From contig CAZNDZ010000001.1 of NCBI GenBank assembly GCA_964572155.1, forward strand, positions 648,840 through 712,839: 64,000 nt of DNA, read 5' to 3'. Position numbers and translations under genes: made by a program. Numbering within the stretch: the stretch's first letter is position 1; each line of letters opens with the position of its first letter. The DNA is from an uncultured Planctomycetales bacterium (GTDB lineage Bacteria; Omnitrophota; Gorgyraeia; Zapsychrales; Fredricksoniimonadaceae). Positions 7,740-32,713 of the stretch are shown here, piece after piece. Below the pieces are notes generated by a model. That model was not told the DNA's origin, did no database searches, and saw only the letters and a program-made list of their open reading frames with translations.

Positions 7740-7742
7740 CTT

Positions 7743-8423: not shown

Positions 8424-8426
8424 GCC

Positions 8427-9360: not shown

Positions 9361-9429
9361 TTGTTAATCATTGATTATTTAATCTTGGGTTAAATGCACA
9401 TCAAAAAAATATTTTTATTGGAGAGAAAC

Positions 9430-12400
9430 ATGATGAAATATATTGTTTTAGCGCTATTTGTATTAACATCATTTTCAGCTCAAGCGGCAACAACTTCAAA
9501 ATCTAACCCAAGTACATATCCTAAAGCGGTTGTGTCTAAGTCTTTGGTTAAGACACCTGAACCTATATCAAGTCCTACTACAAGCAATCCAACAAAAACG
9601 ACTAGTTCTGCTAAAACAGCTGCAACCTTGAGTTTGGCTGCAGCATCGGTCAGTTCTAGCGGGGGATCTTCAGCTAGCAGCATTACCACACAGGCAACAA
9701 GTGTGCATGTAGAGCAAACATCAGGTAGTGCTAATTTACCTATTCATATTGATACCCTCCCAGGAAGGGCGGGGATAGAGCCAAATATTAATCTTGTCTA
9801 TAACTCTGGCATGAGGCAGTTAGGGCTTGCAGGGGTGGGTTGGTCACTTGATTTGGGTTCAATTTCATTGTCCGTCAAAAAAGGTGTTCCTTTGTATGAT
9901 GGATCAGATACGTATGAACTATCTGGTATGAAATTGATTTATGATCCAACGGCAGGTTATTATCGGCCTGAGGTAGAAGGATCATTTTCTAAAATCGAAA
10001 AGATATCAAACGCTTGGGTCGTAACAGACAAAAAGGGGACCAAGTATTATTACGGAAGTGACGATACGTCTCGCATGGTTGACCCTGCCAATGCTTCACG
10101 TATTTTCCGTTGGTATTTATGCAAGGTGATTGATATTTTTGGCAATGCCATGAATGTGTATTATCACAAGGACGGGGCTCAGGTATATCCCGATCATATT
10201 TATTATACCGCTCTTGAAGGAGCTAATGCTGCTTACATAGGAAGTACTGCCCCAAGCATCGTCAATTTCGAGTATGTTGCAGCTCGTCAGAAGAGTACTT
10301 CTTATATCTCAGGATTTGAAGTTAATAATGCGTATATCTTAAGTGCGATAAAGACGTATACATATCCTTCGACCCTCAATAATAGCTATCGTTTTACATA
10401 TACGGCAAGCGCATCAACAGCTAAAGACTTACTTACATCCATTAAGATAGATGGGAGTGTTGAAAACGCGGGTTTGATCCCTGATATCAAATTTTCTTAT
10501 AGCGATACCACATCAACCAAGGGTTTTGTGCAAGATGTATTATTTAGTCCAGGCAGTGCGCCGTATTTGAGCTATGCCAGCGGCGGAAATTGGGTCGATG
10601 AAGGCGTTCGTTTTGGGGATCTCAATGGTGATGGCTATCCTGATTTTCTCATGGCGTATTATGATCTTTGTTCAGGGCTTACAACGTCTATGACGGGCTT
10701 AAATAATAAAGATCAGAGTTTTAGTGGTACTAACAAATGGTCTGTTGCTTCAACGGCTATTTTTAATTTAAGTTGCCGTGGGGGTAATCGAGATAATGGT
10801 CAGAGATTTATCGATGTCGACGGGGATGGCTTGCCTGATATTGTGCGTTCGTATTTTGAAGGTGTTGGTTGGCAGGGTGCTGCACTCAACGATGGTACCA
10901 CGGGTTTTAATGCAACCAGTAATTGGGTGATGCCAAATGGGGCATATTTTGCTTCTTGGTTGAATCGAGATTATACCCAGCCTGGGTCTGTGCAGTTGGC
11001 AGATGTGAATGGTGATGGTTATCTTGATGTGGTTGTTTCTGATGTCACGGCCAATAATCATAATGTGTATTTGAATCGCAAGGGTGCGGCAAATCCGACA
11101 ACAGGCTGGGAGACAACGCCAAGTACAAAGTGGATCACCCCTGCTGACGTTGATCTTGCCAATGGTTCCTCAACAGTTGTTGATATCAATGGCGATGGGT
11201 TGGCAGATATTGCTGTTGCAAAGACGGGCTATCGCAAGGTCTATATCAATACAGGTCGAGGTTGGAGTCAAACAAGTGCTGTTTTCGTTACTGACGGAAA
11301 TTGGGACCGCGTTACGTTAAACGATGGTACCGCCCAGATCCTCGACGTAAATGGGGATGGGTTGCCGGATATTGAGATCGTAACAGGCATTGCGGATACG
11401 TCTAATGTATTGATCAATACGGGTAATGGGTGGGTCATTGATAATTCATGGTTAATGACGGGTTTGCAGTTTTCACATATGGACACTCAATTTATTGATA
11501 TGAATGCCGATGGCATGATCGATTATTTGAATGCACCGCTAGGTTCTCAGCCACGCCTTTTTACAAATACTGCCAAGGTGCCAGATTTGTTAGTAAAAGT
11601 AGATAATGGCGTCGGGACAACCATGACAATTGCGTATGACAGTTCGGCGCATATGAGCAATCAATATTTGCCGTTTACGTTCCCCGTTGTCAAATCTCTT
11701 ACTTTAAACACCATCTCAGGTGATAGGACATCTTCTTACGTTACGCGTTACAACTACGAAGGTGGTTTATGGGATGTGACGGATCGTGAGTTTCGTGGCT
11801 TTAAGAAAGTTACAACCACTGATCCCGACGGGAACTATTCTATTGCGTATATGTTGCAGGATCATTTCCGCAAAGGCACCGCGTATTTAACGGAGAGCTA
11901 TGATAACACAGGAAAATTGCTTGGTAAGTCGGAAAATTTTGTAGCATTATCTCCTGTTGTTGGCACATCTGTACAGTTTCCATATTTAGTTCGATCTGAT
12001 AATTATCTTTATGGTGCCGACGGAAGTTTAAAACAACGCAGTGCGCAGGTGATGGATTATGATTTAACCAATGGCAATGTGACGAAAAAAGTGCAATACG
12101 GGGCCATTGATATAACAACACCATCTCTATCAATCATTGCTGATCCCAAGGTTGTCACAAGCATCGATAACAATGTGTTAACGACAACCATTGATTACGT
12201 TAATAATGCTGCACAGCCATTTATGAGCCTGCCTAAGTTGACGACGATTAGCGACAAACTGGGCACCACAATCAAAAAGACATGGTTCTATTATGATAAC
12301 AGTACGGACAATAATGCACTATTTACCAATGGGTTATTGACCAAAAAAGAAGATTGGAATGGGGATGCTAATCCAAGATTAACGACAACATATGCTTATG

Positions 12401-18101: not shown

Positions 18102-18491
18102 ATGATGCTTTCAAGAAATAATCTTAATACGACGAAAGAAAAGGTTTATTTTGTTGTTCTTTTTTTATTGGCATGCGTTGTATGGCTGGGGGTTCCTTAT
18201 TGGATATATGTTAGTCATAATTTAATTCCTCTTTGGATAATGTTAGGGATTGGTTCTTTATTGGCATTTATGACATGGCTTGGAAATGGATTGATCGTTG
18301 CATATTTGAGGGCTAACTGCGTCAAGGTTGATTCTACACAATTCTCACAACTTGGGACGGCATTAGAGGAGGTTTGTAATCGTCTAGGCACGCGAGTTCC
18401 AGAACTTTATATCTTGCAGTCCAATGGTTTTCTTAATGCTTTTGCCATGCGCCAAAGTGGCAGGGATTTTGTAGTCTTATATTCAAAATAA
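18102..18491 (+). pseudogene. truncated HtpX/M48-family membrane protease gene (N-terminal 129 aa only; no HExxH)
   Basis: Two N-terminal TM helices, then ...LGTRVPELYILQSNGFLNAFAMRQSGRDFVVLYSK-stop. This is the conserved P-x-vy-i-x-s-x-x-NAFA segment that in M48 peptidases immediately precedes the HExxH helix. The ORF stops 2 nt before the 18-bp inverted repeat of the adjacent RAYT element. Confidence 0.45.
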
Positions 18492-18492
18492 A

Positions 18493-19233
18493 GAGAAAGG
18501 GACAGTCCCCAAAAAGGGGACAGGGAGTAATGATTAAATAACATCCTTCCCCGAGGATTTCAAATATATATAGATCAACCCCCCGCAAGAAATAGTAGGG
18601 GATTATGGTAAGGAAGGCGCGAAGTGGGTTGTTGTATGATGGGTGTTATGCTCATATTATTTCAAGATCGATTAGGAAGTTAAAAGTATTTCGAGATGAA
18701 GAAGATTTTAGTTTTTTCTTAAATAGTTTAAATGAATTAAAAGGATTGCATTCATTTAAAGTTTTTCACTATTGTCTCCTTCATACGCATTTTCATTTAG
18801 TTGTGCAGATTAAGTCAGTAAATAGTTTTTCTAAGAGTATGAATAAGTTAAAGAGTCAGTATGTTTTTAAATTTCATACTAAGTATCGATTAAGCGGACC
18901 AATATGGCGAGAGCGATATAAGAGTTTGTTGATTGAAGATGACCGGTATTTATATGCGTGTGGAAAATATGTTGAGAATAACCCAGTTGAAGCTGGATTA
19001 GTGAGGAAAGCAGAAGATTGGAAGTATGGTTCAGCGAGTGGTAGAGATAAGCATATTGTAGAAGTGTTGAAAGATACAACGATGATTGCAGAAATAGATG
19101 TATCTGACAAGAAACAATACGAGCGCGGGAATGCAATCGGGTCTGATTATTACAAGTATCAAATGAGGCAGAAATTAAGCAAGGAAAGTTGATAATGATA
19201 GGGTGTCCCCAAAATGGGGACTGTCCCTTTCTC
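18493..19233 (+). mobile_element. REPtron / IS200-like unit: Y1 HuH transposase bounded by perfect 18-bp inverted repeats GAGAAAGGGACAGTCCCC
   Basis: 18493-18510 GAGAAAGGGACAGTCCCC and 19216-19233 are exact reverse complements. Each end also folds as an imperfect hairpin (GGGACAGTCCCC-aaaaa-GGGGACAGGG; GGGTGTCCCC-aaaat-GGGGACTGTCCC). Confidence 0.7.
18605..19192 (+). CDS. IS200/IS605-like Y1 (HuH) transposase / REP-associated tyrosine transposase (RAYT)
   Basis: 195 aa; N-terminal ...YAHIISRS..., HuH motif HTHFHLVV, Tyr-containing distal region (WRERYKS, YLYACGKYVENNPVEAGLV). Confidence 0.75.
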   Translation: MVRKARSGLLYDGCYAHIISRSIRKLKVFRDEEDFSFFLNSLNELKGLHSFKVFHYCLLHTHFHLVVQIKSVNSFSKSMNKLKSQYVFKFHTKYRLSGPIWRERYKSLLIEDDRYLYACGKYVENNPVEAGLVRKAEDWKYGSASGRDKHIVEVLKDTTMIAEIDVSDKKQYERGNAIGSDYYKYQMRQKLSKES

Positions 19234-19517
19234 CTACGGTGGCTATGGAATATAATAAAGATCAGATTATATTTGCTGTAAGAAAGATTTTTAGAAATGA
19301 AGATCAGAATAAAGTTCTTGAAGAATTGAATTTGGAAGATTCAGGATCTATTAGGGTTTATTTAGCGGTTTTAAAATTAAGCAAAGGTAATCTAAAAGAT
19401 TTTTATTTATTCTTAAAAAAATCCCAAGAAGATTATAGGGATGTATTGTGGCAAGCGGAATATGAAGAAAATGGTGAAAAAGAATTGATTAATCCTTATA
19501 AACAGATTTTAACATAA
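19203..19517 (+). CDS. hypothetical protein (104 aa) between the two RAYT units
   Basis: ORF only; its start overlaps the right inverted repeat of the first RAYT unit. Confidence 0.25.
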   Translation: MSPKWGLSLSPTVAMEYNKDQIIFAVRKIFRNEDQNKVLEELNLEDSGSIRVYLAVLKLSKGNLKDFYLFLKKSQEDYRDVLWQAEYEENGEKELINPYKQILT

Positions 19518-19725
19518 AGATGCAATTCCATAACGATCATATCTTGAAAGTCAAAGTTCAACAGTCCGGAGATATATTTATAAATGGTAAACTTGTTTCA
19601 TGGATAGAATTTGAAAAGGCTCTATCTAATTTAAAAGAAATAAAAGGGGCTGTTTGGTTTTATCGGCAAAATGCAATTGGGATACAGAATGAAATAGCAG
19701 AACAGGTTTTTACAAAAGTATTGGG

Positions 19726-19745
19726 AATAAATAGTGTCGTTTCTC
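19726..19745 (-). repeat. REP-B unit in inverted orientation (AATAAATAGTGTCGTTTCTC)
   Basis: Exact reverse complement of the 20-bp GAGAAACGACACTATTTATT units found 3' of the second RAYT gene, giving the inverted-flank REPtron arrangement. Confidence 0.7.
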
Positions 19746-19848
19746 ACAACAACAAGCATTGTAAGTATTTATAAATAATTCAGGATCCCCCTCCTGAAGC
19801 AACCTAAAAATAAACTAATCCCCCCGCATAAACAGAAAGAGTAAGTTC

Positions 19849-20550
19849 ATGGGAAGGGATGCGCGTGTTTGTCAAACTGGGTTGACGTATCATGTGATTA
19901 ATCGAGGGAATAATAGGGAAGTAATTTTTGTTGAGCAAGAAGATTATACGCATTATTTAAATACGGTACAAAGATACAAAAAGAAGTATGGTTTTAAACT
20001 GTTTGCATTTTGCTTAATGACCAACCATGTACATATGTTGATAAAGGTTGAGGGAGATGTAAGCATAAGTCGGATTATGCAATCGATCACTATCGCACAT
20101 ACACGCTTTTATAATTATAAATATCAGCGTAGTGGGCATGTTTGGCAAGGACGGTTTATGAGTCCAATTGTGAGCGAGGATGATCATTTGCTGACGGTTA
20201 TGAGATATATCGAACAAAATCCACTACGTGCACGAATGGTTAAAGATGTGGGAGAATATCGATGGAGTAGTTATTTATTGAATGTGCGAGAACAAGAGTC
20301 AAAAATGATTGACCGTGAAGTGAATTTGGTTTTTAATAGATTGGGCGTTGATGTAAAAGCGAGGATCAAGCGCTATCGAGAGGGAATGCAAGAGGATATT
20401 AAAAAGAAAGAGCTTGAGGCGATACAGACAACTACGAGAAAAAGTGGTAATTATGTATCAAGTTTGTTTCAGGAGCAATTTAATAAATTGTTACCAAATA
20501 AAAAGAAACGAGGTCGTCCGAAGAAGGTTGAATTAATTGTAAATATCTGA
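19849..20550 (+). CDS. IS200-like Y1 (HuH) transposase / RAYT with C-terminal AT-hook-like tail
   Basis: 233 aa; LTYHVINRGNNRE N-terminus, HuH motif NHVHMLIKV, distal RSGHVWQGRF / RYIEQNPLRARMV region, C-terminal KKKRGRPKKVE (GRP AT-hook-like). Confidence 0.75.
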   Translation: MGRDARVCQTGLTYHVINRGNNREVIFVEQEDYTHYLNTVQRYKKKYGFKLFAFCLMTNHVHMLIKVEGDVSISRIMQSITIAHTRFYNYKYQRSGHVWQGRFMSPIVSEDDHLLTVMRYIEQNPLRARMVKDVGEYRWSSYLLNVREQESKMIDREVNLVFNRLGVDVKARIKRYREGMQEDIKKKELEAIQTTTRKSGNYVSSLFQEQFNKLLPNKKKRGRPKKVELIVNI

Positions 20551-20565
20551 AATTAATTAGTTTCT

Positions 20566-20848
20566 GAGAAACGACACTATTTATTCGAGGAATAATTGAG
20601 TATTCTTAAAATACTAGCAATTTTAACCCCCCAGTGAATTAATTATAAGTTCTTTTGATTGAACGCTTTGTGAGAAACGACACTATTTATTTATGTATCA
20701 AGTTTGTTTCAGGAGCAATTTAATAAATTGTTACCAAATAAAAAGAAACGAGGTCGTCCGAAGAAGGTTGAATTAATTGTAAATATCTGAAATTAATTAG
20801 TTTCTGAGAAACGACACTATTTATTCTAGAGAAACGACACTATTTATT
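20566..20848 (+). repeat. four direct copies of the 20-bp REP-B unit GAGAAACGACACTATTTATT
   Basis: Identical copies at 20566-20585, 20672-20691, 20806-20825 and 20829-20848; irregular spacing, so not CRISPR-like. Confidence 0.8.
20691..20826 (+). repeat. 136-bp perfect direct duplicate of 20451-20586 (last 100 nt of the RAYT gene plus one REP-B unit)
   Basis: Identical strings read directly (ttatgtatcaagtttgtttcaggagcaatttaataaattgttaccaaataaaaagaaacgaggtcgtccgaagaaggttgaattaattgtaaatatctgaaattaattagtttctgagaaacgacactatttattc). Confidence 0.85.
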
Positions 20849-20934
20849 CTATTTATTTCAATGTGTCCCAATATTTTTTGTTTCTAAATAGAGATTGATA
20901 AAGAAGTTAAAAGACGAAATAAGGTGGGAGGGTA

Positions 20935-22089
20935 TTGATGAGAATTTTTAGATGGTTTTTATTCGTATCTTTTGTTGTAGTGGCATCAGGGTGTGCATCA
21001 ACGATGAGTGCGGTAAAGAGTAATGCTAGCTTTTCTAAGTATAAGAAAGTATATGTTTTGAATTTTAAGGATGATCCAAGGAAAGTTATACCTAAAGTTG
21101 TAAATCAATTTAAGAAATTAGGTCTTGAGGTTGTCTTAACTAAAGAGGGTGAACCTGTTGGGGGGACGCAAGGAACCGGCTATATTATCAATGCTGACGG
21201 ATATGTCTTAACAGCAGCGCATGTTTTGAATCATGAGAAGACAGTTACGGTTTGGGTAAATAAAGTGCAATATGAAGCAGAAGTTATTTATAAAGAAGAG
21301 GATGATAAAGAAGAGGATTCTGTCGATAATAATCATTTAAGTCTTCAGAAATCGTTAGAGAAGTCATTAAACTCAAAGAATAATCAGTCTATTGCTGAAT
21401 TTGTTAATAATCGTGATCTAGCATTATTGAAGATTATATCTGATAAAAAAGATTTTCCTACTTTGGTTTTTTCTAAGTCTCCCGCATATGTTATGGGGCA
21501 ACAAATATATACTTTAGGTTTTCCTTTAAGCAATATTCTTGGGGATACACCACGGTTAAACCAAGGGGTCATAAGTTCTGCAGTTGGGATTAAAGACAAT
21601 GATAAATTTATTCAAATTTCTGCTGAAGTGCAGCCAGGAAACAGCGGAGGGCCATTGTTATCGCAAGATGGGAAGGTTACAGGAATGATTGTGATGTCAT
21701 TAAGACAGGGTCAAAATATAAATTTTGCTCTTAAAAGCGAGCATTTAAAAGAGTTTATTAATAATGCGAACAAAAAAGCTAAAATAGGGCTTAATTTAAA
21801 CTATTCTGATAAGTCTTCTTTAGAAAACGTTCAAGAGGCGCTAGTTCAAATTCGTTCTGGAAGAATTTCTCCTGAGTTCAAAAAAGAGCCAAAGCTTGTT
21901 TGTTCGTTCCGTTATGAATATTTGTGGGATATGTGGAATCGATTTGCTTTATTTGATCTATCTTTGTTTGATTGGGATACGGACGAGATCCTATTGCGTG
22001 CTGGTCAATATGGTGATAATCCAATGACGAATGAAAATAGCACCATTGATAATGTTTTTAGAGAAATAAAGAATAAGTTAAATTTGTAG
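20935..22089 (+). CDS. lipoprotein with trypsin-like (S1) serine protease domain
   Basis: Lipobox VVVASG/C; catalytic-triad contexts TAAHV (His), DLALLKI (Asp), GNSGGPL (Ser); 384 aa with C-terminal extension. Confidence 0.7.
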   Translation: MMRIFRWFLFVSFVVVASGCASTMSAVKSNASFSKYKKVYVLNFKDDPRKVIPKVVNQFKKLGLEVVLTKEGEPVGGTQGTGYIINADGYVLTAAHVLNHEKTVTVWVNKVQYEAEVIYKEEDDKEEDSVDNNHLSLQKSLEKSLNSKNNQSIAEFVNNRDLALLKIISDKKDFPTLVFSKSPAYVMGQQIYTLGFPLSNILGDTPRLNQGVISSAVGIKDNDKFIQISAEVQPGNSGGPLLSQDGKVTGMIVMSLRQGQNINFALKSEHLKEFINNANKKAKIGLNLNYSDKSSLENVQEALVQIRSGRISPEFKKEPKLVCSFRYEYLWDMWNRFALFDLSLFDWDTDEILLRAGQYGDNPMTNENSTIDNVFREIKNKLNL

Positions 22090-22107
22090 AAAAGAGGGAA
22101 ATGGCCA

Positions 22108-22135
22108 AATAAATAGTGTCTGCGCGCTATTTATT
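22108..22135. repeat. hairpin AATAAATAG-tgtctgcgcg-CTATTTATT containing an inverted REP-B core (AAATAGTGTC)
   Basis: 9-bp perfect stem read directly, 19 nt after the protease stop codon. Confidence 0.6.
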
Positions 22136-22193
22136 GTAAAATGCTAATAACATTTTTATAGAAATTGTTATTAACAAATGTTATACTTTTACG

Positions 22194-23162
22194 ATGAAAC
22201 CTCCATTTGATATTACTCCTAGGATTTTGAATTTAACGGCTGGAATCAGCGCTATGATTGGGCGTCTTGAGGCTTCTCGTTTGAAAATTCCTCTCGTTGA
22301 TCTTAGGCGTCAGGTAGATGCGTCCTCAATACATTCTAGTTGTATTATCGAGGGTAATACATTAACACTAGATCAAGTGACAGATGTTATTAATGGAAAA
22401 CGTGTTCTTGGGCCTAAGAAAGATATTCTTGAGATTAAGAATGCGCATAAACTTTATAGCAAGATCAATGAGTTTAACCCTTTAAATGAAAAAGATCTTT
22501 TACAAGCTCATAAAATTCTTATGGAAGGGTTGGTTGACAGACCTGGAAAAATACGAGGTACGGGTGTTGTAGTAGCGGCACAAGGTAAGGTGGTTCATAC
22601 TGCACCACCACACCAGAGAGTTGCAGGATTGATATCGCAGCTTTTTAACTTTATTGCTGAATCAAAAGATCTACATGTTTTGATTACTTCGAGCATTTTT
22701 CATTATGAATTTGAATTTATTCATCCTTTTGAAGATGGTAATGGTCGTATGGGAAGATTTTGGCAGACTTTAATGTTAAGACAAAGTAGATTGGCATATA
22801 ACCTTGTTCCCATTGAAACGGCCATTAAACAACATCAATCCGAGTATTATCAAGCAATTGCTCAATCCAACAAAGATGGTAAATCAACATTCTTTGTTGA
22901 GTTTATGCTCGGAATAATTCTGGAGGCTGTTTTAGATTTAGAAAAACTTGTATCTGGTCGGGCTAAACCAAAAGATCGAATAGCATACATGATGAAAAAC
23001 TGTCCTTTAGAATTTACACGACAAGAATATATAGAAATCATGGGAGATATTGAAGTGCACACGGCATCAAGAGATTTGAATCAAGCCGTAAAATTAGGAT
23101 TACTGAAAATGAAGGGTAGTCGAGCTACAGCAGTCTATAGAAAAATTAGAAATACCGCATAA
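22194..23162 (+). CDS. Fic family protein (AMPylation/phosphocholination-type fold) with C-terminal winged-helix-like domain
   Basis: Canonical Fic motif HPFEDGNGRMGRF; 322 aa; partial REP-B core GACACTATTTAT at 23168-23179 just after the stop. Confidence 0.85.
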   Translation: MKPPFDITPRILNLTAGISAMIGRLEASRLKIPLVDLRRQVDASSIHSSCIIEGNTLTLDQVTDVINGKRVLGPKKDILEIKNAHKLYSKINEFNPLNEKDLLQAHKILMEGLVDRPGKIRGTGVVVAAQGKVVHTAPPHQRVAGLISQLFNFIAESKDLHVLITSSIFHYEFEFIHPFEDGNGRMGRFWQTLMLRQSRLAYNLVPIETAIKQHQSEYYQAIAQSNKDGKSTFFVEFMLGIILEAVLDLEKLVSGRAKPKDRIAYMMKNCPLEFTRQEYIEIMGDIEVHTASRDLNQAVKLGLLKMKGSRATAVYRKIRNTA

Positions 23163-23289
23163 ACACTGACACTATTTATATTTTCATTGTCGTTTTTAAA
23201 TAGTTTTGAAACCTCTTCCTTATAACTTCATATATTTATATAATCTAAGAAGCTTTGATGTATATAAATTAACCAAAGAGTGACTTTTT

Positions 23290-23775
23290 ATGCAATGGAT
23301 GATGCGTGTCATTTTTGTATTAGAGAAGGTGTTTATCCTAGTGGCGGTAGCTTTGGTTGTTTATGCGGTGATTTATTTGAATAAGCCGGTTGCATTGCCA
23401 GTGGTTTTAACACAGACAGCAAGTGTTGATGTTTCATCGACGGACAATGTAGTAGAAATGGCGTTGGTTTCTAGTGCTGATGTGGGGGTGGTTGAGCCGC
23501 AGCGGGATTTGTTTGATGCCGCAGGTGCGCCAGCGGATTTGGGCGTCAATAATGCGGCGATGTCTAATATGTTGCCGGCAAATTTTAAGGTGGTGGGGAT
23601 CATCATCGGACAGTCATCTCAAATTGCCATCGAAGACACCGCATCGCATCAGACCTACATCATTGCCAAGGGTAGTCAAGAACAAGGCATTGAGGTCATG
23701 GATATTCATCGGGATCAGGCATTGTTAAAATATCAGGGGCAGGCGATCACCTTGCCATTACAATTAAAACAATGA
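23290..23775 (+). CDS. gspC: GspC/PilP-like secretin-associated T2SS component
   Basis: N-terminal TM helix, then a short beta-rich domain (FKVVGIIIGQSSQIAIEDTASHQTYIIAKG...) like the GspC HR/PilP domain; directly precedes the secretin gene with overlapping stop/start. Confidence 0.4.
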   Translation: MQWMMRVIFVLEKVFILVAVALVVYAVIYLNKPVALPVVLTQTASVDVSSTDNVVEMALVSSADVGVVEPQRDLFDAAGAPADLGVNNAAMSNMLPANFKVVGIIIGQSSQIAIEDTASHQTYIIAKGSQEQGIEVMDIHRDQALLKYQGQAITLPLQLKQ

Positions 23776-25472
23776 TAAAAATCTTTTATCTCATCTTGTC
23801 GGTTTTTTTCGCGCTTGGGCCCGCCATTGCGCAAGAAGCAGACGTTCCCGTCGTTGCTTCCAAACAAATGCTAGATGTTTTAGAACTCAAAGATATGGAT
23901 ATCAATGATGTTTTTAAGCTCATCTCATCTAAGACGGGCATTAATATCATCGCTGGAAAAAATGTCCAAGGGCGTGTGACGATTTATCTGAAAGATGTGG
24001 AAGTGCATGACGCATTGCATATTATTCTAGAAGCCAACGACTTGGCGTATATGGAAAGTCGCGGGATCATGCAAATTGTGCAAGCGGCAGATTTTGAACG
24101 CATGTTTGGTTACAAGTTTGGACAAACCACAGTGCGCAAAGTCGTGGCCTTAAAAGGCATGAATGCAACAGACGCGGCGGTATTATTAGCAAATTTCAAA
24201 AGCACGTCGGGAAAAGTCATTGCGGATGAGCAATCAAACTCACTGGTCATCGAGGAACAGCCTGCCAATTTAAGGAGCATGGAAGATTTCTTAAGTACGA
24301 TAGATGTGCCGGCTCAAACCAAAGCGTTTGAGCTTATGTTTGTGCAAGCCGATGCCATCACCGCGCGCATCGCCGAAATTTTAACACCAAAAGTTGGCAC
24401 CATCCGTTTTGACGCGCAATCTAATAAAATTTTTGTTAAAGATACAGAAGCAAAACTAAAAGACGTGGCAAATTTATTGCAGATGTTAGATGTGCCACGG
24501 CGCACGCAGGTTTTCGAATTAAGCTATATGAAAGCGGAAGACATGGTCAAGGCGATCACGTCGCTGTTAACCAAGGACATTGGTCACGCGGAGGTTGATG
24601 TCAAAGGTAACAAGTTGGTGGTAACAGACATCGCGCCTAAGATTGTTGAGATTACGAGGGTCATCGACGCGCTTGATAAAAAAGATCAACAGGTTCTGAT
24701 TGAGGCAAGGATTGTGCAGGTTTCGTTGACGGATAAGACCAAGCTTGGCATCAATTGGGACGCGGTGATTAATAAATGGCATGACACGCGCATGACCAAT
24801 GATTTTGGATTAGGTGATGCGGTTAATCCCAAAGGGGTGTTAAGCATTGGCACCATCGATAATGACCAATATAGTTTTGTGATGGAGGCGTTAAATTCTT
24901 CTGGGAAAACACGCCTATTATCAAACCCCAGCATCGCGGTTGTCAATAATCAGGAAGCGAAGATTTTGGTTGGGACCACCAAGCCTTATGTGACGACAAC
25001 CACCACAACCCCGTCATCCGGGCCAACGAGCATATCAGAAGCGGTGACATTCATTGACGTGGGTGTCAAGTTGACGGTCACTCCGACAATTCATAAAGAT
25101 GGTTATATCACCATGAAGATAAAGCCAGAGGTGTCTTCCGCTACATCGTCCTTGGTTACAGGTTCTAAGAATGAAATCCCCATTGTTGATACGTCGACTG
25201 TTGATACAACCATCCGCGTCATGGATGGGGTAACAATTGTTTTAGGCGGCCTTATCAAAGATGAGCGGTCAGCGAATAATAGTCAAGTGCCTGTGCTTGG
25301 TAAAATACCTCTGGTAGGTGCTGCTTTTCGCCAAAAAAGTGATTCCATAGAAAAGACTGAGATCATGGTCTTTTTAACGCCCCGCATCATTACGGGGGAT
25401 ATTCAAGCCAATGATAAGAATCCTAAGCTGATCAAAGGCGATAAAGTGTATTCCGACCATCCAATCGAGTAA
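23772..25472 (+). CDS. gspD: type II secretion system secretin GspD
   Basis: Signal peptide, N0/N1-like domains, C-terminal secretin domain (...VPVLGKIPLVGAAFRQKSDSIEKTEIMVFLTPRII...). Confidence 0.85.
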   Translation: MIKIFYLILSVFFALGPAIAQEADVPVVASKQMLDVLELKDMDINDVFKLISSKTGINIIAGKNVQGRVTIYLKDVEVHDALHIILEANDLAYMESRGIMQIVQAADFERMFGYKFGQTTVRKVVALKGMNATDAAVLLANFKSTSGKVIADEQSNSLVIEEQPANLRSMEDFLSTIDVPAQTKAFELMFVQADAITARIAEILTPKVGTIRFDAQSNKIFVKDTEAKLKDVANLLQMLDVPRRTQVFELSYMKAEDMVKAITSLLTKDIGHAEVDVKGNKLVVTDIAPKIVEITRVIDALDKKDQQVLIEARIVQVSLTDKTKLGINWDAVINKWHDTRMTNDFGLGDAVNPKGVLSIGTIDNDQYSFVMEALNSSGKTRLLSNPSIAVVNNQEAKILVGTTKPYVTTTTTTPSSGPTSISEAVTFIDVGVKLTVTPTIHKDGYITMKIKPEVSSATSSLVTGSKNEIPIVDTSTVDTTIRVMDGVTIVLGGLIKDERSANNSQVPVLGKIPLVGAAFRQKSDSIEKTEIMVFLTPRIITGDIQANDKNPKLIKGDKVYSDHPIE

Positions 25473-25481
25473 GGACAAAAC

Positions 25482-27167
25482 GTGCGTTGGCAAAAGAGAT
25501 CGCTGTTGGGACAATTTCTTTTAAATCAAGGGGCTGTTGCCCAAGAACAGCTCGATGCCGCGCTTGATGAACAAAAACGCACAAAAGAGCTTTTAGGGCA
25601 GATCCTCCTGCGTAAAGGTTATATTAGCGACGAGCAAGTCATCCTAACCTGCCTGTCAGATCAATTGCACATCGAAACAATCAGCTTAAAACAAATCACC
25701 CCAGATGCCAATGCTTTAGCGCGACTACCAGCCAAAGCCGCGAATTATTATAAAGTTTTTCCCATTAACATGAGCAATGGTGTTCTTAAAGTGGCCGTGC
25801 ATGATCCTCTGGATTTAAGGGTCTTGGATGATTTAAATCTCATGGCCCGTTGTCCGGTGGTCACAGTCTTGGCATCACAAAAAGAAATCATTGAGGCCAT
25901 CCGTGAACATTATGGCTTAGGCGCTGAGACCATTGAGCAAATGATGGGCACCACAGCCCAAATGTCCAATGAACAAGAAGTCACCGTCATTGATGAGGCT
26001 GATTCCGACGCGTCCATTAGCCGTTTCTTAAATCAAATTCTGTTGCAAGCTTATAAAGATCACGCCACCGACGTGCACATCGAGCCTTTTGAAGAATCCT
26101 TGCGCATCCGATACCGCATCGACGGGGTTTTATATGACGCTGGTATCCCATCTAACTTGAAGTATTTTGCTGATGTGTTAATCACGCGTGTCAAAGTCTT
26201 AGCCAATTTAAATATTGCTCAGAAACGTTTGCCGCAAGACGGCCGTTTTAAAGTGAAGGTGGCGGACATTGAATTGGATTTGCGGGTGTCGTTTTTACCG
26301 ACGTCCTATGGTGAAAGTGTTGTGATCCGTATTTTAAATTCAGTTAAGCTCTTGAGTTTAGAAGAATTGGGTTTTGGCCCGGCTCATCGTGAAACCATCA
26401 AGCAATTATTGGAAACACCGCATGGCATTATTTTTGTGACAGGTCCGACGGGAAGCGGGAAAACAACCACGCTCTATGCCTGCTTGTCAGCGATCAACAG
26501 CGAAGAAACAAAAATCATCACGATCGAAGACCCCATTGAATATCAACTTAAAGGCATTGTTCAAGTTCAGGCTTTCACGCAGATCGGTTTAACCTTTGCA
26601 TCAATCTTGCGCTCAGTCTTGCGTAATGATCCGGATGTGATCATGGTCGGTGAAGTTCGCGACGCAGAAACCGCGCAGATCACCATTCAAACCGCCCTGA
26701 CGGGCCATTTGGTATTTTCAACCTTGCACACCAATGATGCAGCCTCCGCCGTGACCCGCTTGTTGGACATGGGCATCGAGCCGTATCTGATCGCATCTTC
26801 CGTCGAGTGCTTTGTTGCCCAACGCTTGGTGAGAACCTTGTGCCCACATTGCAAACAGAAAGTACCATTAACACAGGATATCGCCGCAGAGTTTGGCATA
26901 AAAGCCATTGAGCCATCCGCTGTTGTCTATAAAGCCAATGGCTGTAAACATTGCCGCATGACAGGGTATGTGGGGCGAGAAATCATTTGTGAGACTTTAA
27001 AGATGAATGATGAGATCCGTGCATTGATCATGAAGCAGGCAACTGCTCAAGAGATTTTACAAAAAGCAACGATGCAAGGGATGCAGACGATGCGCGCTCA
27101 TGGTTTAAGTAAAATCTTAGCAGGCATCACCACAACAGCAGAAGTGCTGCAAGCAACTCAAGAATAG
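25482..27167 (+). CDS. gspE: type II secretion ATPase GspE
   Basis: GspE N-terminal domain, Walker A GPTGSGKTTT, Asp and His boxes, C-terminal tetracysteine CPHC...CKHC. Confidence 0.95.
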   Translation: MRWQKRSLLGQFLLNQGAVAQEQLDAALDEQKRTKELLGQILLRKGYISDEQVILTCLSDQLHIETISLKQITPDANALARLPAKAANYYKVFPINMSNGVLKVAVHDPLDLRVLDDLNLMARCPVVTVLASQKEIIEAIREHYGLGAETIEQMMGTTAQMSNEQEVTVIDEADSDASISRFLNQILLQAYKDHATDVHIEPFEESLRIRYRIDGVLYDAGIPSNLKYFADVLITRVKVLANLNIAQKRLPQDGRFKVKVADIELDLRVSFLPTSYGESVVIRILNSVKLLSLEELGFGPAHRETIKQLLETPHGIIFVTGPTGSGKTTTLYACLSAINSEETKIITIEDPIEYQLKGIVQVQAFTQIGLTFASILRSVLRNDPDVIMVGEVRDAETAQITIQTALTGHLVFSTLHTNDAASAVTRLLDMGIEPYLIASSVECFVAQRLVRTLCPHCKQKVPLTQDIAAEFGIKAIEPSAVVYKANGCKHCRMTGYVGREIICETLKMNDEIRALIMKQATAQEILQKATMQGMQTMRAHGLSKILAGITTTAEVLQATQE

Positions 27168-27179
27168 GGGCGTAGTTTC

Positions 27180-28388
27180 ATGCCAACATTTGCATACAAG
27201 GCAAAAAACTCCGGATCGTCGGTGATTGAAGGTGTTATCACGGCGGACAATCAACAATCTGCGGTGACAAAGATTTTGGAGCTGGGTCAAACACCCATCC
27301 TTGTTGAGCTTACGACGAGTAAGAATCGTGTAAAGCCATTGATGGTGCGTTCTAACGTATCAATCACAGCATTGGCGTATTTCTCTAAGTCATTAGCAGA
27401 CCTCTTAGAAGCAGGTGTGCCGTTGGTGAGGGCATTGGAATTATTGGGCAAACAGCGCATCGCGCCTGTTTTGAAAAACGCGTTAGGGCAGATTGCGACG
27501 GCGGTCAGGGATGGTTCTAGTTTATCTAAATCCTTAGAGTCTTATCCGGATATTTTTAATAAATTATATGTGAGTATGATTCGATCGTCGGAAGCGGCGG
27601 GTAATTTGACGCGGGCATTGGTTATGTTGGGGCAGAACTTGGACAAAGAGGTGGTGATTCAAAATCGTATCCGTTTGGCGTTGATGTATCCCATGATCAT
27701 TTTAAGCGTTGGTATTGCGTCGATCATTGTGTTGCTTACCTTTGTGTTGCCCAAGTTAACCGTGATGTTCGATGATTTTGGTGCAGACTTGCCTTTGCCA
27801 ACGCAGATGGTTGTGGCATTAAGTCATTTCGTGACCCATGATGGTTGGATCGTGGCATTATTATTCGCGGCCGCGACGGGCTATTTTTTAAAATACCGCA
27901 CAACCCCTCAGGGACAACAACAGTTAAGCGCGATCGTGTTGCGCATTCCGGTGATCAGTGATTTCTTAAAAGCCATATCAATTGCACGCTATACCCGCAC
28001 GGTGGCCATCCTTTTAGAAAGCGGTGTGCCCATCACAACGGCATTAGAATCAAGCATCATGGTTTTAGATAATGCGGTGTTCATTGAGCAAGCAAAACAT
28101 ATTGCAAATCAAGTGCGCATGGGCACAAGCTTGTCCGTGGCAGTTCGTTCCGCCGCTGTTTTTGGTGATTTAACTGCAAACTTGATTGCGGTCGGTGAGC
28201 AGGGTGGAAAACTTGAAAGCAATTTATTTAAAATAGCCGCGATCCATGAAGAGCAAAGTCAACACATGACGGAAAACACCTTAAATGTTTTGGGTCCCGT
28301 GGTGTTGATCTGTGTGGTCACTGTTGTTGGGGCGATGATGTTTGCGATCATTTTACCGTTAATCAAAATGAATATGATAATCAAATAG
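27180..28388 (+). CDS. gspF: type II secretion inner-membrane platform protein GspF
   Basis: 402 aa with the two repeated GspF/PilC cytoplasmic domains and 3 TM segments. Confidence 0.9.
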   Translation: MPTFAYKAKNSGSSVIEGVITADNQQSAVTKILELGQTPILVELTTSKNRVKPLMVRSNVSITALAYFSKSLADLLEAGVPLVRALELLGKQRIAPVLKNALGQIATAVRDGSSLSKSLESYPDIFNKLYVSMIRSSEAAGNLTRALVMLGQNLDKEVVIQNRIRLALMYPMIILSVGIASIIVLLTFVLPKLTVMFDDFGADLPLPTQMVVALSHFVTHDGWIVALLFAAATGYFLKYRTTPQGQQQLSAIVLRIPVISDFLKAISIARYTRTVAILLESGVPITTALESSIMVLDNAVFIEQAKHIANQVRMGTSLSVAVRSAAVFGDLTANLIAVGEQGGKLESNLFKIAAIHEEQSQHMTENTLNVLGPVVLICVVTVVGAMMFAIILPLIKMNMIIK

Positions 28389-28401
28389 GTAAGGAGAATT
28401 T

Positions 28402-28830
28402 ATGAAAGAACGTGCCTTTACGATGATCGAGATTTTATTGGTGGTCATCATGATCAGTGTGCTGGCGGCCATGGTGGTGCCAAATCTGACGGGACGGACA
28501 GATCAAGCTAAGTTGGTCGCGGCGCAAACCGACGTGGAAACCAATTTGCCTGCGGTGCTTGACCTTTATAAGATGGATAATGGTGTTTTTCCAACAACAG
28601 AACAAGGGTTGGCCGCGTTATTAACAGCGCCCGTCACAACCCCAGCCCCAGAACATTGGAATGGCCCCTACATTAAGAAAAAGAAAATGCCGCAAGATCC
28701 TTGGGGTCGGCCCTACGCGTACGTTAATCCAGGCGTGCATAATAAAGAAAGTTATGATTTGTCATCTTTCGGTGCCGACGGTATTGAAAGCAAAGATGAC
28801 ATTGTCAATTGGTTGAGCGTAAAGCCATGA
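28402..28830 (+). CDS. gspG: major pseudopilin GspG
   Basis: Prepilin leader and processing site MKERAFTMIEILLVVIMISVLAAMVVPNL; GspG-type ...DNGVFPTTEQGLAALL... Confidence 0.9.
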   Translation: MKERAFTMIEILLVVIMISVLAAMVVPNLTGRTDQAKLVAAQTDVETNLPAVLDLYKMDNGVFPTTEQGLAALLTAPVTTPAPEHWNGPYIKKKKMPQDPWGRPYAYVNPGVHNKESYDLSSFGADGIESKDDIVNWLSVKP

Positions 28831-29237
28831 TGCATGTTAACCGAGGATCCTTGATCCTTGAAGCTGTCATTGCTGTTGTGGTGATGGCCATTGGCCTTAC
28901 AACATTGATGCAAGCTTTAATGAACAATGCCAATGTTGTCAACAGCGCCCAAGAGTATGGCCGTGCGTGGTTGATCATTAATGAAAAACTTCAAGAGAAG
29001 GTCTTCTTTGATAAGACCAATATCTCGCTCGAAAATCAAGCGGTTGATGCGGCATTACCTCGCGTGAAATACGACCAAACATTCAAAACCTTAACACAAG
29101 AGCCTTGGATTGGTTTAAAGCAATTGGATTTATCCTTGCATTGGGCCAATAACGCCAATACACGCAGTCTTAGCATAAGGACCATCTTGCCCAATGATGA
29201 TACGCAACAAACAAAACAAAGCCTTTTCTACAATTAA
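28809..29237 (+). CDS. minor pseudopilin (GspI/GspH-like)
   Basis: Short prepilin-like N-terminus ...RGSLILEAVIAVVVMAIGL; likely start ATG 28827 overlapping the gspG stop. Confidence 0.5.
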   Translation: MVERKAMMHVNRGSLILEAVIAVVVMAIGLTTLMQALMNNANVVNSAQEYGRAWLIINEKLQEKVFFDKTNISLENQAVDAALPRVKYDQTFKTLTQEPWIGLKQLDLSLHWANNANTRSLSIRTILPNDDTQQTKQSLFYN

Positions 29238-29853
29238 CGTCGATCAACATGGGTTTACGCTCCTTGAAATGCTCTTAGGGGTCGTTATTACGGCGTTGGT
29301 GGGTTTTAGTTTATTTCAGATCTTTGCCAATGGCATGAACACTTATCAGCGGGCGCAATTGACAGCGAAAGTGTATTTGCAAATGTACAAAGTCTTTGAC
29401 GCGCTGGATGCCGATATCGCGGCGATCATCACGTTTGATTACAGAGCGGTGGATCCGCAATGGAAAAGTTTTCATGGTAATGCAACGTCGATGCATTTTG
29501 TTAGGAAAGCGAAGGATGGGTTACAGATGGTGTCTTACGCCGTTTATGATGACAAAAGCCGAGGCGATGAAGTCAGACGCAAGATCAACCCCTTAGTTGA
29601 CGTGCTTGCAAAGCAAACAAAGGATGTTGCTGGGGATGTTGTTGCGAAATATATACAGGATGATGGCTTTACATTAACGTATGCGCAGGCAGAGCCAGAG
29701 TCAGTCAATGGCAAGGTCAAGATACGTTGGCAAAACAGTTGGGAAGAGGAGCATCTTCCCATTGCGATTGCGGTAAAGATACGCTTTAAGCCTAATCAAG
29801 AAAAACAAGCACCGGTTGAGTTTAGCCGTATTTTTTATTTAGAAAATCGGTAA
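29194..29853 (+). CDS. minor pseudopilin GspJ-like
   Basis: Prepilin-type N-terminus QHGFTLLEMLLGVVITALVGFSLF; 219 aa. Confidence 0.5.
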   Translation: MMIRNKQNKAFSTINVDQHGFTLLEMLLGVVITALVGFSLFQIFANGMNTYQRAQLTAKVYLQMYKVFDALDADIAAIITFDYRAVDPQWKSFHGNATSMHFVRKAKDGLQMVSYAVYDDKSRGDEVRRKINPLVDVLAKQTKDVAGDVVAKYIQDDGFTLTYAQAEPESVNGKVKIRWQNSWEEEHLPIAIAVKIRFKPNQEKQAPVEFSRIFYLENR

Positions 29854-29855
29854 GA

Positions 29856-30758
29856 ATGAATATAAGAAAAAATAATTCTGGTATAATTTTAATTGCGGTG
29901 ATTGCCGTGATGATTGTGCTCACCATAGTTACCCTCAGTGCGGGGAGTCTTGTATCGACGACGATGCAGTATACTCAAAAAGAAATAGCCCGCACACGGG
30001 CCATGGCTAGTGCTTTGGCAGGGGTGAATTATGCGTTGCATTTGATGCAGGATCATCCATCGCTAGTCGACACCTGGTGGCAAAGCGGGGTGCGTGTCGA
30101 CAATAAAGAACAGGCAGGAAAGTATTTTGATCATGTGGTGTTAAGTAAAAACACACAGTTTGATGTGGACATCATGGATCAAACGCGGTATCTAAATCTA
30201 AATGCTTTAAATTTGACTAACGCGTCGCTGTTATCACGCTTGATTGTGGCGCATGGATTTTCAATGCAGCAAGGGGATGATATTGCCGCTAATGTGATTG
30301 AATGGTTAACACAAATTAAAAAAGCTCCCTTTGATGATGTTGCCGAACTTACGCTTGTCAAAGGCATGACCAAAGATATTTTTGAAAAGATCAATGTTGA
30401 TCTAACGGTGTATCCAAAATTTCCTGCCGATGGGCTGGTGGCGAATTTTTGGACAGCTTCACCTAAGTTTTATCAGGCCTTGGTGGCAGATGTCACAGCA
30501 ACGCATAAGGTGGAAAATGTTTCAACTTTCGTTGCCCTTGCGCAAAAGTATCGCACCAAAGAAAAACCGGCAAATCCCGACGGGGTAGAATTAGCCATGT
30601 TGGCCGCAGGGGGGCATGTACCAGTTGCGTTAGACTATAAAGTACATGTGGTTGGTTTTGACGCGTTAACCAAAACGCGTGTCGAGGTAGAGGCATTGAT
30701 TAACAAAGATCAAAATGGCGCGTGGGGCATTCAACGTTTTAATAGGGTGTTATTTTAA
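29856..30758 (+). CDS. gspK: minor pseudopilin GspK-like
   Basis: N-terminal TM/prepilin-like segment SGIILIAVIAVMIVLTIVTLSAG followed by a roughly 260-aa periplasmic domain, size and position typical of GspK. Confidence 0.55.
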   Translation: MNIRKNNSGIILIAVIAVMIVLTIVTLSAGSLVSTTMQYTQKEIARTRAMASALAGVNYALHLMQDHPSLVDTWWQSGVRVDNKEQAGKYFDHVVLSKNTQFDVDIMDQTRYLNLNALNLTNASLLSRLIVAHGFSMQQGDDIAANVIEWLTQIKKAPFDDVAELTLVKGMTKDIFEKINVDLTVYPKFPADGLVANFWTASPKFYQALVADVTATHKVENVSTFVALAQKYRTKEKPANPDGVELAMLAAGGHVPVALDYKVHVVGFDALTKTRVEVEALINKDQNGAWGIQRFNRVLF

Positions 30759-32652: not shown

Positions 32653-32684
32653 TTCTCATTTTATGCCTCATGAAATTCTTTTCC

Positions 32685-32713
32685 TTGACGCATTTAGCTT
32701 ACAGGCGTATAAT
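32685..32713 (+). promoter_or_regulatory. sigma70-type promoter of rpsO
   Basis: TTGACG (32685-32690), 17-nt spacer, TATAAT (32708-32713); AGGAGG RBS at 32763-32768 before the TTG start. Confidence 0.5.

Follow-up and report, generated by a model that had tools for sequence, protein, structure and literature searches.

A probable three-layered locus in an uncultured Omnitrophota bacterium, composed of a polymorphic Rhs toxin gene, a REP/RAYT-bearing spacer and a type II secretion operon

The DNA considered here, hereafter the window, is a stretch of 64,000 nucleotides (nt) from an uncultured member of the Omnitrophota, in which the region from 9.3 to 23.2 kb carries a gene for an Rhs/YD-shell polymorphic toxin, several genes of no known family, two transposases of the RAYT type (tyrosine transposases associated with repetitive extragenic palindromic, or REP, sequences), a serine protease and a Fic-domain protein, and stops at the promoter of a gsp operon for a type II secretion system (T2SS). 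An original prediction had listed this same inventory, which was confirmed by Pfam, NCBIfam and PADLOC matches, and had regarded the whole region as one accessory island of about 14 kb. The present analysis indicates, with good confidence, that the region is a composite of three nested layers and not a single island. The first layer would be a Sec-exported Rhs toxin gene that lies upstream of the gsp operon, on the same strand, and makes up with it a block of ~23.4 kb. The second would be a replaceable toxin tip that begins after the motif LIDPTGH and is followed by a likely immunity gene, recognized by its position. The third would be a dispensable low-GC spacer, which separates the Rhs stop codon from the gsp promoter by 7.4 kb and appears to collect REP/RAYT elements, gene debris and accessory genes; its load comprises three REP families, two intact RAYTs, each enclosed by inverted REPs of its own, a truncated htpX, duplicated RAYT/REP ends, the protease and Fic.

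Relatives of the window are labelled L003-L043, and those compared for gene order were reached through both of its flanks (the ParA side and the GspD side); the GspD and ParA homologs that bear names belong to the Omnitrophota. Domains were searched in Pfam, NCBIfam (including permissive E-values) and PADLOC and by sequence search against the PDB. Contigs from three other independent samples were 100% identical to the window sequence, which is therefore considered reliable; since all three were identical, strain variation was discarded as an uninformative source. Almost all genes of the window are encoded on the + strand. The genome is highly compact, with non-coding DNA amounting to 1.3% between 23.3 and 56.6 kb versus 16.8% in the flagged region. 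The upstream flank consists of housekeeping genes (pstB, phoU, a nuoF-like gene, a porin gene, a ParA-CBM48 fusion and five small genes), and the downstream flank contains the complete gsp operon followed by rpsO, pnp, ftsK, rodZ and miaB.

Table 1. Features of the locus, with positions in the window
Feature	Position	Strand	Basis or remark
Left synteny breakpoint and Rhs upstream region	9260..9393	+	orthologs of 8801-9259 directly precede rpsO in L009, L010 and L011
Rhs/YD-shell polymorphic toxin, TcB-TcC-like (BC-fusion) build, 2146 aa	9394..15834	+	Pfam, TIGR03696, PDB
Rhs demarcation motif LIDPTGH, aa 1837-1843	14902..14922	+	alignment with the main and orphan copies of L003
Variable C-terminal tip, 303 aa	14923..15831	+	no Pfam, NCBIfam or PDB match
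137-aa open reading frame (ORF) directly 3' of the tip	15865..16278	+	GC at third codon positions (GC3) 0.20; no family or structure match
REP-C copy GAAAAATAGGGGTCAACTCCCTATTTTCTAG	16327..16357	.	related copies or half-sites at 16456-16480, 16976-16999, 18020-18050
Small lipoprotein ORF (lipobox FIEGC)	16484..16975	+	translation; inverted REP-C half-sites on both sides
320-aa ORF, hydrophobic N-terminal segment (possible signal peptide, by eye)	17058..18020	+	stop codon abuts a REP-C copy
HtpX/M48 protease N-terminal fragment, no HExxH	18102..18491	+	NCBIfam HtpX 2.7e-6, far below cutoff
REP-A left arm (GAGAAAGGGACA plus hairpin GTCCCC-AAAAA-GGGGAC)	18493..18522	+	repeat search, folding
RAYT1, HUH/Y1 transposase of RAYT type, HUH and catalytic Tyr intact	18605..19192	+	Y1_Tnp 2e-11
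REP-A right arm, inverted relative to left arm	19204..19233	-	repeat search, folding
Two small ORFs of no known family (about 19246-19517; 19520-19774)	19246..19774	+	called as genes in public assemblies
REP-B left arm, 57-58-nt unit, outer 20-mer GAGAAACGACACTATTTATT	19725..19782	-	repeat search
RAYT2, HUH/Y1 transposase of RAYT type	19849..20550	+	Y1_Tnp 1.6e-21; last 22 nt inside REP-B right arm
REP-B right arm and extra copies, units ending at 20585, 20691, 20825, 20848	20529..20851	+	repeat search
Lipoprotein S1C (trypsin-like) serine protease with C-terminal extension	20935..22089	+	Trypsin_2 1.9e-25; lipobox ASGC
REP-B-derived palindrome AATAAATAG-TGTCTGCGCG-CTATTTATT, carrying GACACTATTTAT on the minus strand	22100..22135	-	repeat search, folding
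Fic upstream palindrome TAATAACA-N13-TGTTATTA, then third half-site AAATGTTAT	22136..22193	+	nearly identical upstream of the L019 Fic ortholog
Fic-domain protein, SoFic type, Fic motif HPFEDGNGRMGR	22194..23162	+	Pfam Fic 7e-19; PADLOC SoFic 1.5e-45, nearly full length
REP-B remnant GACACTATTTAT, right end of variable spacer	23168..23179	+	repeat search
gsp promoter region (~23,200-23,289) and complete T2SS operon	23200..32652	+	promoter conserved; domain matches
Right synteny breakpoint and rpsO promoter (CCTTGACGC-N17-TATAAT)	32653..32775	+	promoter conserved across L009-L011

The Rhs protein and its C-terminal tip

The Rhs protein is laid out as a Sec signal peptide, a Ser/Thr-rich linker, SpvB, an FG-GAP propeller, TcdB_mid, RHS repeats and the Rhs core, as seen from matches to SpvB (2.5e-25), FG-GAP (1e-16), TcdB_toxin_midN (1.6e-21), RHS_repeat (1.5e-42, in five stretches) and Rhs_assc_core (TIGR03696, 1.8e-22). 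Its likely start is MMKYIV at 9430, and the NCBI gene call corresponds to a 2134-aa version. PDB matches were obtained to an Rhs protein (7Q97, 1e-34), TcdB2-TccC3 (4O9X, 1e-30) and TcdB1 (1e-8), and the order of SpvB, beta-propeller and TcdB_mid half followed by an RHS-repeat shell is that of the Rhs/Tc toxins, represented by TcdB2-TccC3 and by the Rhs effectors of type VI secretion systems (T6SS; 7Q97). Unlike the TcB-TcC and T6SS Rhs proteins, the protein of the window bears a Sec signal peptide and a Ser/Thr-rich linker and has no PAAR, VgrG or TcA partner within the 64 kb, no such domain having been detected in the Rhs protein itself or in the scanned ORFs of the island and its flanks.

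The core ends in a motif of the PxxxxDPxG(L/H) type (NNPVNLIDPTGH, aa 1832-1843), up to which the protein is 62-73% identical to the Rhs of L003, a relative described below, and directly after which the two are unrelated. Such a core ending in a DPxG-type motif, with divergence exactly after it, is a hallmark shared with other Rhs loci, as are the lower GC of the tip and downstream cassette and the presence of an orphan Rhs fragment in a relative. The tip itself is composed of a Gly/Ala-rich hydrophobic stretch of ~220 aa and, from nt 15661, a conserved but unnamed module of ~65 aa with the motifs ENPNRPGSxG...RxD...GKDHxHxxGxxxHLP, and in this it differs from known Rhs proteins. The module is rare: of 1.84 billion representative clusters, 104 carry it, in every case as the very last part of the protein, among them Rhs proteins that begin with DUF6531, DUF6443 or C39 and also Trypsin_2 proteins. 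This C-terminal-only spread is the distribution that would be expected of a polymorphic-toxin tip. The identity of the putative toxin was sought in Pfam, NCBIfam and PADLOC, with permissive E-values, and in the PDB with no match, a word-indexed homolog search with the tip returned a single match, and the AlphaFold2 model built from a two-sequence alignment was unusable, with a predicted local distance difference test score (pLDDT) of 49.6.

The 137-aa ORF that directly follows the tip is, by its position only, a likely candidate for the immunity protein. Rhs tips and their neighbouring cassettes would be expected to turn over by recombination. In L003 (6700-7422), the Rhs ortholog meets a masked N-run near its 3' end, and a Gly-rich 175-aa ORF after the run is probably the rest of its toxin tip; the annotated length of 1917 aa is therefore likely an assembly artefact.

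Synteny and composition of the variable block

The relatives L009 (GCA_964520655.1), L010 (GCA_041910255.1) and L011 carry orthologs of the backbone genes at 55-99% amino-acid identity, and in all three of these closest relatives the ortholog of 8801-9259 directly precedes rpsO-pnp-ftsK-rodZ-miaB. Since the small-gene cluster abuts rpsO in them, the window holds an extra block of ~23.4 kb (9.26-32.69 kb); this block contains the gsp operon in full and interrupts the backbone between pst-phoU-nuoF-porin-parA-small genes and rpsO-pnp-ftsK. Comparison with the relatives thus found the left break of the predicted island to be real, whereas the right one, expected at 23.2 kb, was displaced beyond gsp to ~32.7 kb, because the cluster directly precedes rpsO-pnp-ftsK in these three genomes; the conserved rpsO promoter lies at ~32.69-32.78 kb in the window. 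The best promoter-like site of 9-24 kb in a promoter scan was TTGACA-17-TATGGT at 9332-9360, upstream of Rhs. The operon at the other side consists of gspC-like, D, E, F and G genes, minor pseudopilins and PilM/N- and PilO-like genes, and the last spacer position, 23179, is ~20 nt from the start of the gsp-promoter homology (~23,200), in agreement with the prediction that the island would end at this promoter.

The association of Rhs with gsp was found again in L003, another contig of GCA_964520655.1, where queA, an Rhs ortholog, two small ORFs, an orphan Rhs fragment and gspC-D-E-F-G follow one another. The ortholog is 62% identical over 1785 aa (window aa 97-1872) and also possesses a signal peptide and a Thr-rich linker. 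As the window and L003 show the same arrangement, Rhs and gsp occur together at two different chromosomal sites, a linkage to a T2SS operon by which they depart from known Rhs proteins. On the other hand, the interval between LIDPTGH and the gsp promoter (~23,200) is wholly different between the two genomes.

The composition of the region follows the same division. GC content is 0.348 in 15,835-23,289, whereas Rhs has 0.432, gsp 0.445 and the backbone 0.40-0.42. The mean GC3 of the ten ORFs in 15.84-23.29 kb is 0.286, compared with 0.422 in 48 other genes (Mann-Whitney p = 5e-6), and Rhs has a native-like GC3 of 0.39. The drop in GC sets in at the Rhs stop codon and ends within the gspC-like gene. 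Foreign composition is therefore confined to the 7.4 kb spacer, and the compositional shift, for which a GC profile of 9-24 kb against the flanks had been suggested, proved real for 15.84-23.29 kb and did not extend to the Rhs gene. Given its native-like composition and its 62% ortholog directly upstream of gsp in GCA_964520655.1, Rhs is not lineage-specific and belongs with gsp. The description of the region as accessory and variable holds for 15.8-23.2 kb, whose content is missing from the equivalent Rhs-gsp interval of L003, whose composition deviates and which is the sole part bearing REPs and RAYTs. As the likeliest seat of lineage-specific biology, the region was only partly borne out, since the spacer content differs from that of L003, but Rhs has its ortholog there and two of the REP families discussed below (REP-B and AAATAG..CTATTT) are identical in other Omnitrophota species. 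Separately from the drop in GC, the GC skew across 15001-22000, which spans the toxin tip and the spacer, was 0.21-0.33, versus mostly 0-0.18 elsewhere.

These results bear on the original view that a resident gsp operon was parted from the small-gene cluster by the insertion of one horizontally acquired island of ~14 kb, from Rhs to Fic. The left edge is indeed a synteny break, the content is of toxin, mobile and effector-like genes, the right end abuts a conserved promoter and in L008 the parA cluster is followed directly by gspC/gspD, without Rhs; moreover, a gene order conserved among relatives with no compositional shift was not what was found. Nevertheless, a single unit is quite unlikely, since Rhs is native-like in GC (0.432) and GC3 and is tied to gsp at a different locus in GCA_964520655.1, and the deviant composition covers 7.4 kb only. 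In addition, the two flanks of the supposed insertion are not neighbours in the close relatives, where the cluster is joined to rpsO, so that gsp itself lies on the extra block; adjacency of cluster and gsp is limited to the more distant L008. Boundary direct repeats or att-like sequences were sought at 9.26, 32.69, 15.8 and 23.2 kb and none was found, no integrase domain was detected in the Pfam and NCBIfam scans of the region and no tRNA gene lies at its flanks, the sole one of the window being at 62.9 kb. The unit that differs from close relatives is accordingly redescribed as Rhs, the spacer and the whole T2SS operon.

Some observations were made on the flanks and on gsp operons of relatives. 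At window 5581-9259, a ParA ATPase is fused to a glycogen-binding CBM48/AMPK1_CBM domain, and its gene is followed by those for a MamF/MmsF-like membrane protein, a Lys-rich EF-Tu-domain-2-like protein and a Flp/class III signal-peptide protein, an order kept in five of the five relative loci examined (L008-L011, L043). Close homologs of the fusion (66-87% identity) are numerous, and those with names are Omnitrophota. In GCA_013565675.1 (L008 5086-12315), the gsp operon is split by a gene for a 1416-aa CARDB/Glug-type protein between gspD and gspE.

REP families and RAYT transposases of the spacer

All REP-type palindromes of the 64 kb fall within 16.1-23.2 kb, and none was found in the other ~57 kb. 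The palindromes that had been quoted in the original prediction as filling the intergenic DNA were recovered exactly and far above chance: the AAATAG..CTATTT family (REP-C) has six matches (0.26 expected), REP-A has two copies inverted around RAYT1 (0 expected) and REP-B has five exact copies around RAYT2 (0.01 expected), its 12-mer core GACACTATTTAT being present in seven (0.26 expected). Folding indicated GC-containing hairpins for REP-A and REP-C.

Both transposases, each present once within the 64 kb, had REP_Tyr_transpos as their best profile. RAYT2 reaches 81.8 bits with this profile (cutoff 80) but only 35 bits with transpos_IS200 (cutoff 55), and its sole PDB match is the E. coli TnpA-REP (4ER8); for RAYT1, the same profile is the only NCBIfam match. 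The HUH histidines and the catalytic Tyr are invariant in the alignment of the window RAYTs with their relatives (H62, H64 and Y122 in RAYT1). Inverted repeats of the GGGACAG type border the relatives of RAYT1 (41-51% identity), and a strict pattern scan of JGI metagenomes for REP-A itself gave no match. L024 and L027 possess orthologs of RAYT2 (59-65% identity) with REP-B on both sides, in the polarity seen in the window.

The REP-B unit is ~57 nt long and forms an inverted pair around RAYT2 (19725-19782 and 20529-20586), the inner part overlapping the RAYT2 stop codon. A tandem duplication of 240 bp (20448-20589 = 20688-20829, 99% identical) repeats the RAYT2 3' end together with REP-B, and it is within this duplication that short-read contigs of the same strain break. 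At its junction (20688-20692), a REP-B end (...CTATTTATT) is joined directly to an internal RAYT2 site after ...GGTAATT, which looks like end-to-target joining rather than simple slippage. Further to the right, Fic is bracketed by REP-B remnants in the form of inverted GACACTATTTAT sites. The duplication, these remnants and the truncated htpX may be signs of REP-B activity or decay.

Directly outside REP-B 20-mers, their last 8-9 nt are often reiterated in tandem one to three times, in a form that matches the local REP variant (CTATTTATT, with CCATTTATT in L024 and CTATTAATA in L022; the tail is also given as TATTTATT). Such reiterations were seen at window 20566-20860, L022 2436-2620 and 4749-4960, L024 4072-4200 and 6420-6480, and L019 5637-5690. 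In the 60 nt downstream, 38 tails of the own variant were counted versus five of other variants, and in the 60 nt upstream 12 of the own variant. They could mark the site of RAYT cleavage or joining.

Exact copies of the REP-B 20-mer were present in 16 stretches among the GTDB species representatives. Of these, 13, from nine assemblies, are labelled Omnitrophota or related to the source and are mostly extragenic, and the other three fall within coding sequence of unrelated bacteria and appear to be coincidental. In the assembly JAHJCZ01, REP-B occurs on four contigs (eight exact copies, mostly extragenic), three of which are without a RAYT. REPIN-like inverted REP-B doublets lacking a RAYT, 117-179 nt apart, were identified in L017, L018, L022, L024 and L021, and they fold as long hairpins (-19 kcal/mol, z about -5, DNA folding); none was seen in the window itself. 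The 20-mer is 95-100% conserved across species versus 59-65% for the RAYT2 protein, which fits a long vertical co-inheritance of the pair. The records L016, L017, L019 and L024 are titled "uncultured Planctomycetales bacterium" yet carry Omnitrophota-type genes and REP-B, and CAZFNI01 (L016, L019) holds orthologs 55-99% identical to the Omnitrophota window; these titles are probably taxonomic mislabels.

As regards REP-C, a 23-mer of it (AAATAGGGGTCAACTCCCTATTT, window 16330) occurs three times in L021 (GCA_031386565.1), where it flanks a third RAYT. The AAATAG..CTATTT family is therefore considered a REP whose transposase lies outside the window, and a terminator as the sole explanation of these palindromes was rejected, since the very same 23-mer borders a RAYT in a different species; they may also act as terminators. 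The L021 contig in question (JANNCL010000313.1, 1-2525), of 2.5 kb, starts and ends with the same REP-B inverted doublet of ~136 nt and contains REP-C copies, the third RAYT and two ORFs of no known function; a tandem array, an assembly loop and a circular form are all possible explanations of it. The leaders of this third RAYT and of both RAYTs of the window have a small hairpin with a TCCCC loop, after which comes, 20-35 nt ahead of the start codon, a C-run box, A[A/T]CCCCCCGCA (leaders and AWCCCCCC sites at 18523-18604, 19783-19848, 16403-16410 and 20625-20632; L021 490-580). The spacer holds all four AWCCCCCC sites, but over the whole window the box is no more frequent than chance would give, and the RAYT leaders align weakly. 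In L027 (JAHJCZ01, 1399-8000), the REP-B-flanked RAYT2 ortholog lies directly upstream of another gspF/G-type pilus or secretion operon, a second instance of a RAYT adjoining a secretion operon.

The two Y1 units could alternatively be ordinary autonomous insertion sequences (IS) of the IS200/IS605 kind with their derivatives, that is, recent invaders and not domesticated RAYTs. RAYT2 is bounded by inverted ends of ~57 nt, the RAYT-less doublets resemble miniature inverted-repeat transposable elements (MITEs), a truncated RAYT2 copy exists in L016, RAYT1 falls below the RAYT profile cutoff, REP copy numbers are so far low and both units are located in low-GC DNA. The ends of IS200/IS605 elements, however, are not inverted repeats, whereas the repeats here are inverted as in the RAYT arrangement, REP_Tyr_transpos is the best profile for both proteins and is passed by RAYT2, there is no tnpB partner, and a 20-mer so much better conserved than its transposase fits vertical descent. 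Additionally, REP-B and RAYT2 were searched for in IMG/VR and not found. An origin as insertion sequences is thus regarded as unlikely. The same absence from IMG/VR led to the rejection of a prophage or viral origin. The low GC, the many orphan ORFs, the repeats and the gene fragment might suggest a remnant of a prophage or integrative element, but the Pfam and NCBIfam scans detected no integrase, recombinase (the Y1 transposases aside), capsid, portal or terminase domain, no tRNA gene flanks the region, and almost no credence is given to this possibility.

Taken as a REPIN-RAYT system, the spacer resembles that of E. coli TnpA-REP (4ER8; Bertels & Rainey 2011) in its HUH and Tyr residues, in each RAYT lying within its own inverted REPs, in extragenic REPs and RAYT-less inverted doublets, and in REPs conserved across species beside a diverging RAYT; cognate inverted REPs also flank the RAYT orthologs in L024 and L027, the third RAYT in L021 and the RAYT1 relatives. 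Being HUH tyrosine transposases, the RAYTs would introduce nicks into REPs in single-stranded form and disperse doublets of them (REPINs) among intergenic DNA that is not essential. The REP-rich RAYT groups 2 and 3 have been described mainly in Gammaproteobacteria (Bertels et al. 2017, PMC5581495), whereas the host phylum here is Omnitrophota. Other differences from known systems are that REP-B is AT-rich, with a conserved 20-mer that has no conserved hairpin and a ~57-nt unit overlapping the RAYT2 stop codon, that its terminal 8-9 nt are reiterated in short tandem arrays co-varying with the REP variant, that the copy numbers seen are low and that three REP families are packed in one 7 kb spacer.

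Accessory genes of the spacer and the proposed role of the locus

Around these elements, five ORFs (15865-16278, 16484-16975, 17058-18020, 19203-19517 and 19520-19774) had no family match in Pfam or NCBIfam, and PDB sequence search with the immunity candidate and the orphan ORFs gave no match; the 3' end of the last one runs into the REP-B left arm. The HtpX fragment covers profile positions 17-116 of 325 and, being truncated exactly at REP-A, is interpreted as a pseudogene remnant. A cluster member of the protease is named S1-C subfamily serine protease. The translation of Fic contains HPFEDGNGRMGR, in accordance with HxFx(D/E)GNGRxxR, and the protein is nearest to the SoFic-type proteins (PADLOC SoFic, Shewanella oneidensis Fic), with a model match of near full length. 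Unlike SoFic, it reaches only 77.9 bits against the NCBIfam equivalog, far below the cutoff of 550, is flanked by REP-B remnants and has a conserved palindrome upstream. The ~55 nt preceding Fic (window 22136-22193; L019 4520-4580) are better conserved between the two genomes than the Fic gene, and this palindrome is probably an operator/promoter, as would serve autoregulation.

From ~19.8 to 23.2 kb, the spacer might instead be read as a small anti-phage defence islet, formed by a SoFic-type Fic and a protease and carried by, or hitch-hiking with, REP-B/RAYT2, with the Rhs neighbourhood being coincidental. The match of Fic to PADLOC SoFic (1.5e-45) and those of the protease to the protease parts of the PADLOC RT-protease and LmuA-type models point in this direction, as do the inverted GACACTATTTAT sites that bracket Fic and the 69%-identical Fic ortholog of L019, which at a different locus again precedes a REP-B unit with a RAYT2-3'-end remnant. 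However, the protease matches cover the generic trypsin fold only, the protein is a lipoprotein without an RT or LmuB partner, PADLOC revealed no other defence genes and the protease is unlinked to Fic in L019. Fic proteins, moreover, have many non-defence roles. A defence islet is accordingly given a slim chance.

Against the three-layered reading itself weigh several observations. The adjacency of Rhs and gsp was seen in two genomes only, the window and L003; in L005 and L006 the gsp operon follows rlmN and in L007 M16-pilT, none with an upstream Rhs, and in L008, a more distant genome, the parA cluster runs straight into gspC/D, again without Rhs. Since L043 has yet another neighbour (FKBP-ppx-ppk) after the small-gene cluster, this position is a general, recurrent synteny breakpoint, and the data are compatible with either movement of the block or insertion of Rhs upstream of a resident gsp, the latter being the one that L008 fits. 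The roles of toxin and immunity protein are assigned by position, with the tip model at the pLDDT given above. RAYT1 scores 70.8 bits on REP_Tyr_transpos, below the cutoff of 80, REP-A is known from two copies only and the REP-B 20-mer is not a GC-rich palindrome, having only weak, non-conserved local stems. As to dispersal, within the 64 kb the REPs form one cluster of ~7 kb only, and the scan for REP-B covered GTDB species representatives, among which the source genome is not included.

With these reservations, the composite of toxin gene, replaceable tip and spacer can be compared with what has been reported for the phylum. Omnitrophota have been described to carry large secreted proteins beside T2SS-like loci (West-Roberts et al. 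2023, preprint 10.1101/2023.11.21.568195; 2026 preprint 10.64898/2026.06.07.730766), and the window shares with these loci a long secreted-protein gene that adjoins, and is co-oriented with, a gspD/E/F/G-type operon, as well as class III-signal/Flp-like small genes nearby. It differs in that a 2146-aa Rhs lies upstream, versus an adhesin or degradative giant of >10,000 aa downstream. In view of this reported placement, T2SS-dependent export of Rhs, suggested by synteny in two genomes, is plausible. A bolder and rather doubtful proposal is that Rhs would be a Sec-exported toxin cocoon that leaves through the adjacent T2SS, and not through a T6SS, a type VII secretion system or a TcA injector, that Rhs and gsp would make up a relocatable module directed against host or prey cells of ultra-small, probably host-dependent Omnitrophota, and that the REP/RAYT spacer would serve as an exchange site for tips and for cargo such as the REP-B-bracketed Fic.

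All parts of the locus are of known kinds, found here in a poorly studied phylum, and current understanding is not overturned. In practical terms, the repeats at this locus break short-read assemblies. At least three REP-RAYT pairs are common to Omnitrophota species, which extends REPIN-RAYT biology well beyond Gammaproteobacteria, and the 20-mer of REP-B has stayed exact while RAYT2 diverged to ~60% identity; with its AT-rich sequence, its lack of a conserved hairpin and its self-reiterated tails, REP-B is a convenient substrate for mapping RAYT cleavage. The Omnitrophota have almost no cultured members and no genetics, and a signal-peptide Rhs beside a T2SS at two chromosomal sites fits the pattern published for this phylum. 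The linkage of Rhs and T2SS, as read from gene order, suggests a possible delivery route for Rhs toxins.

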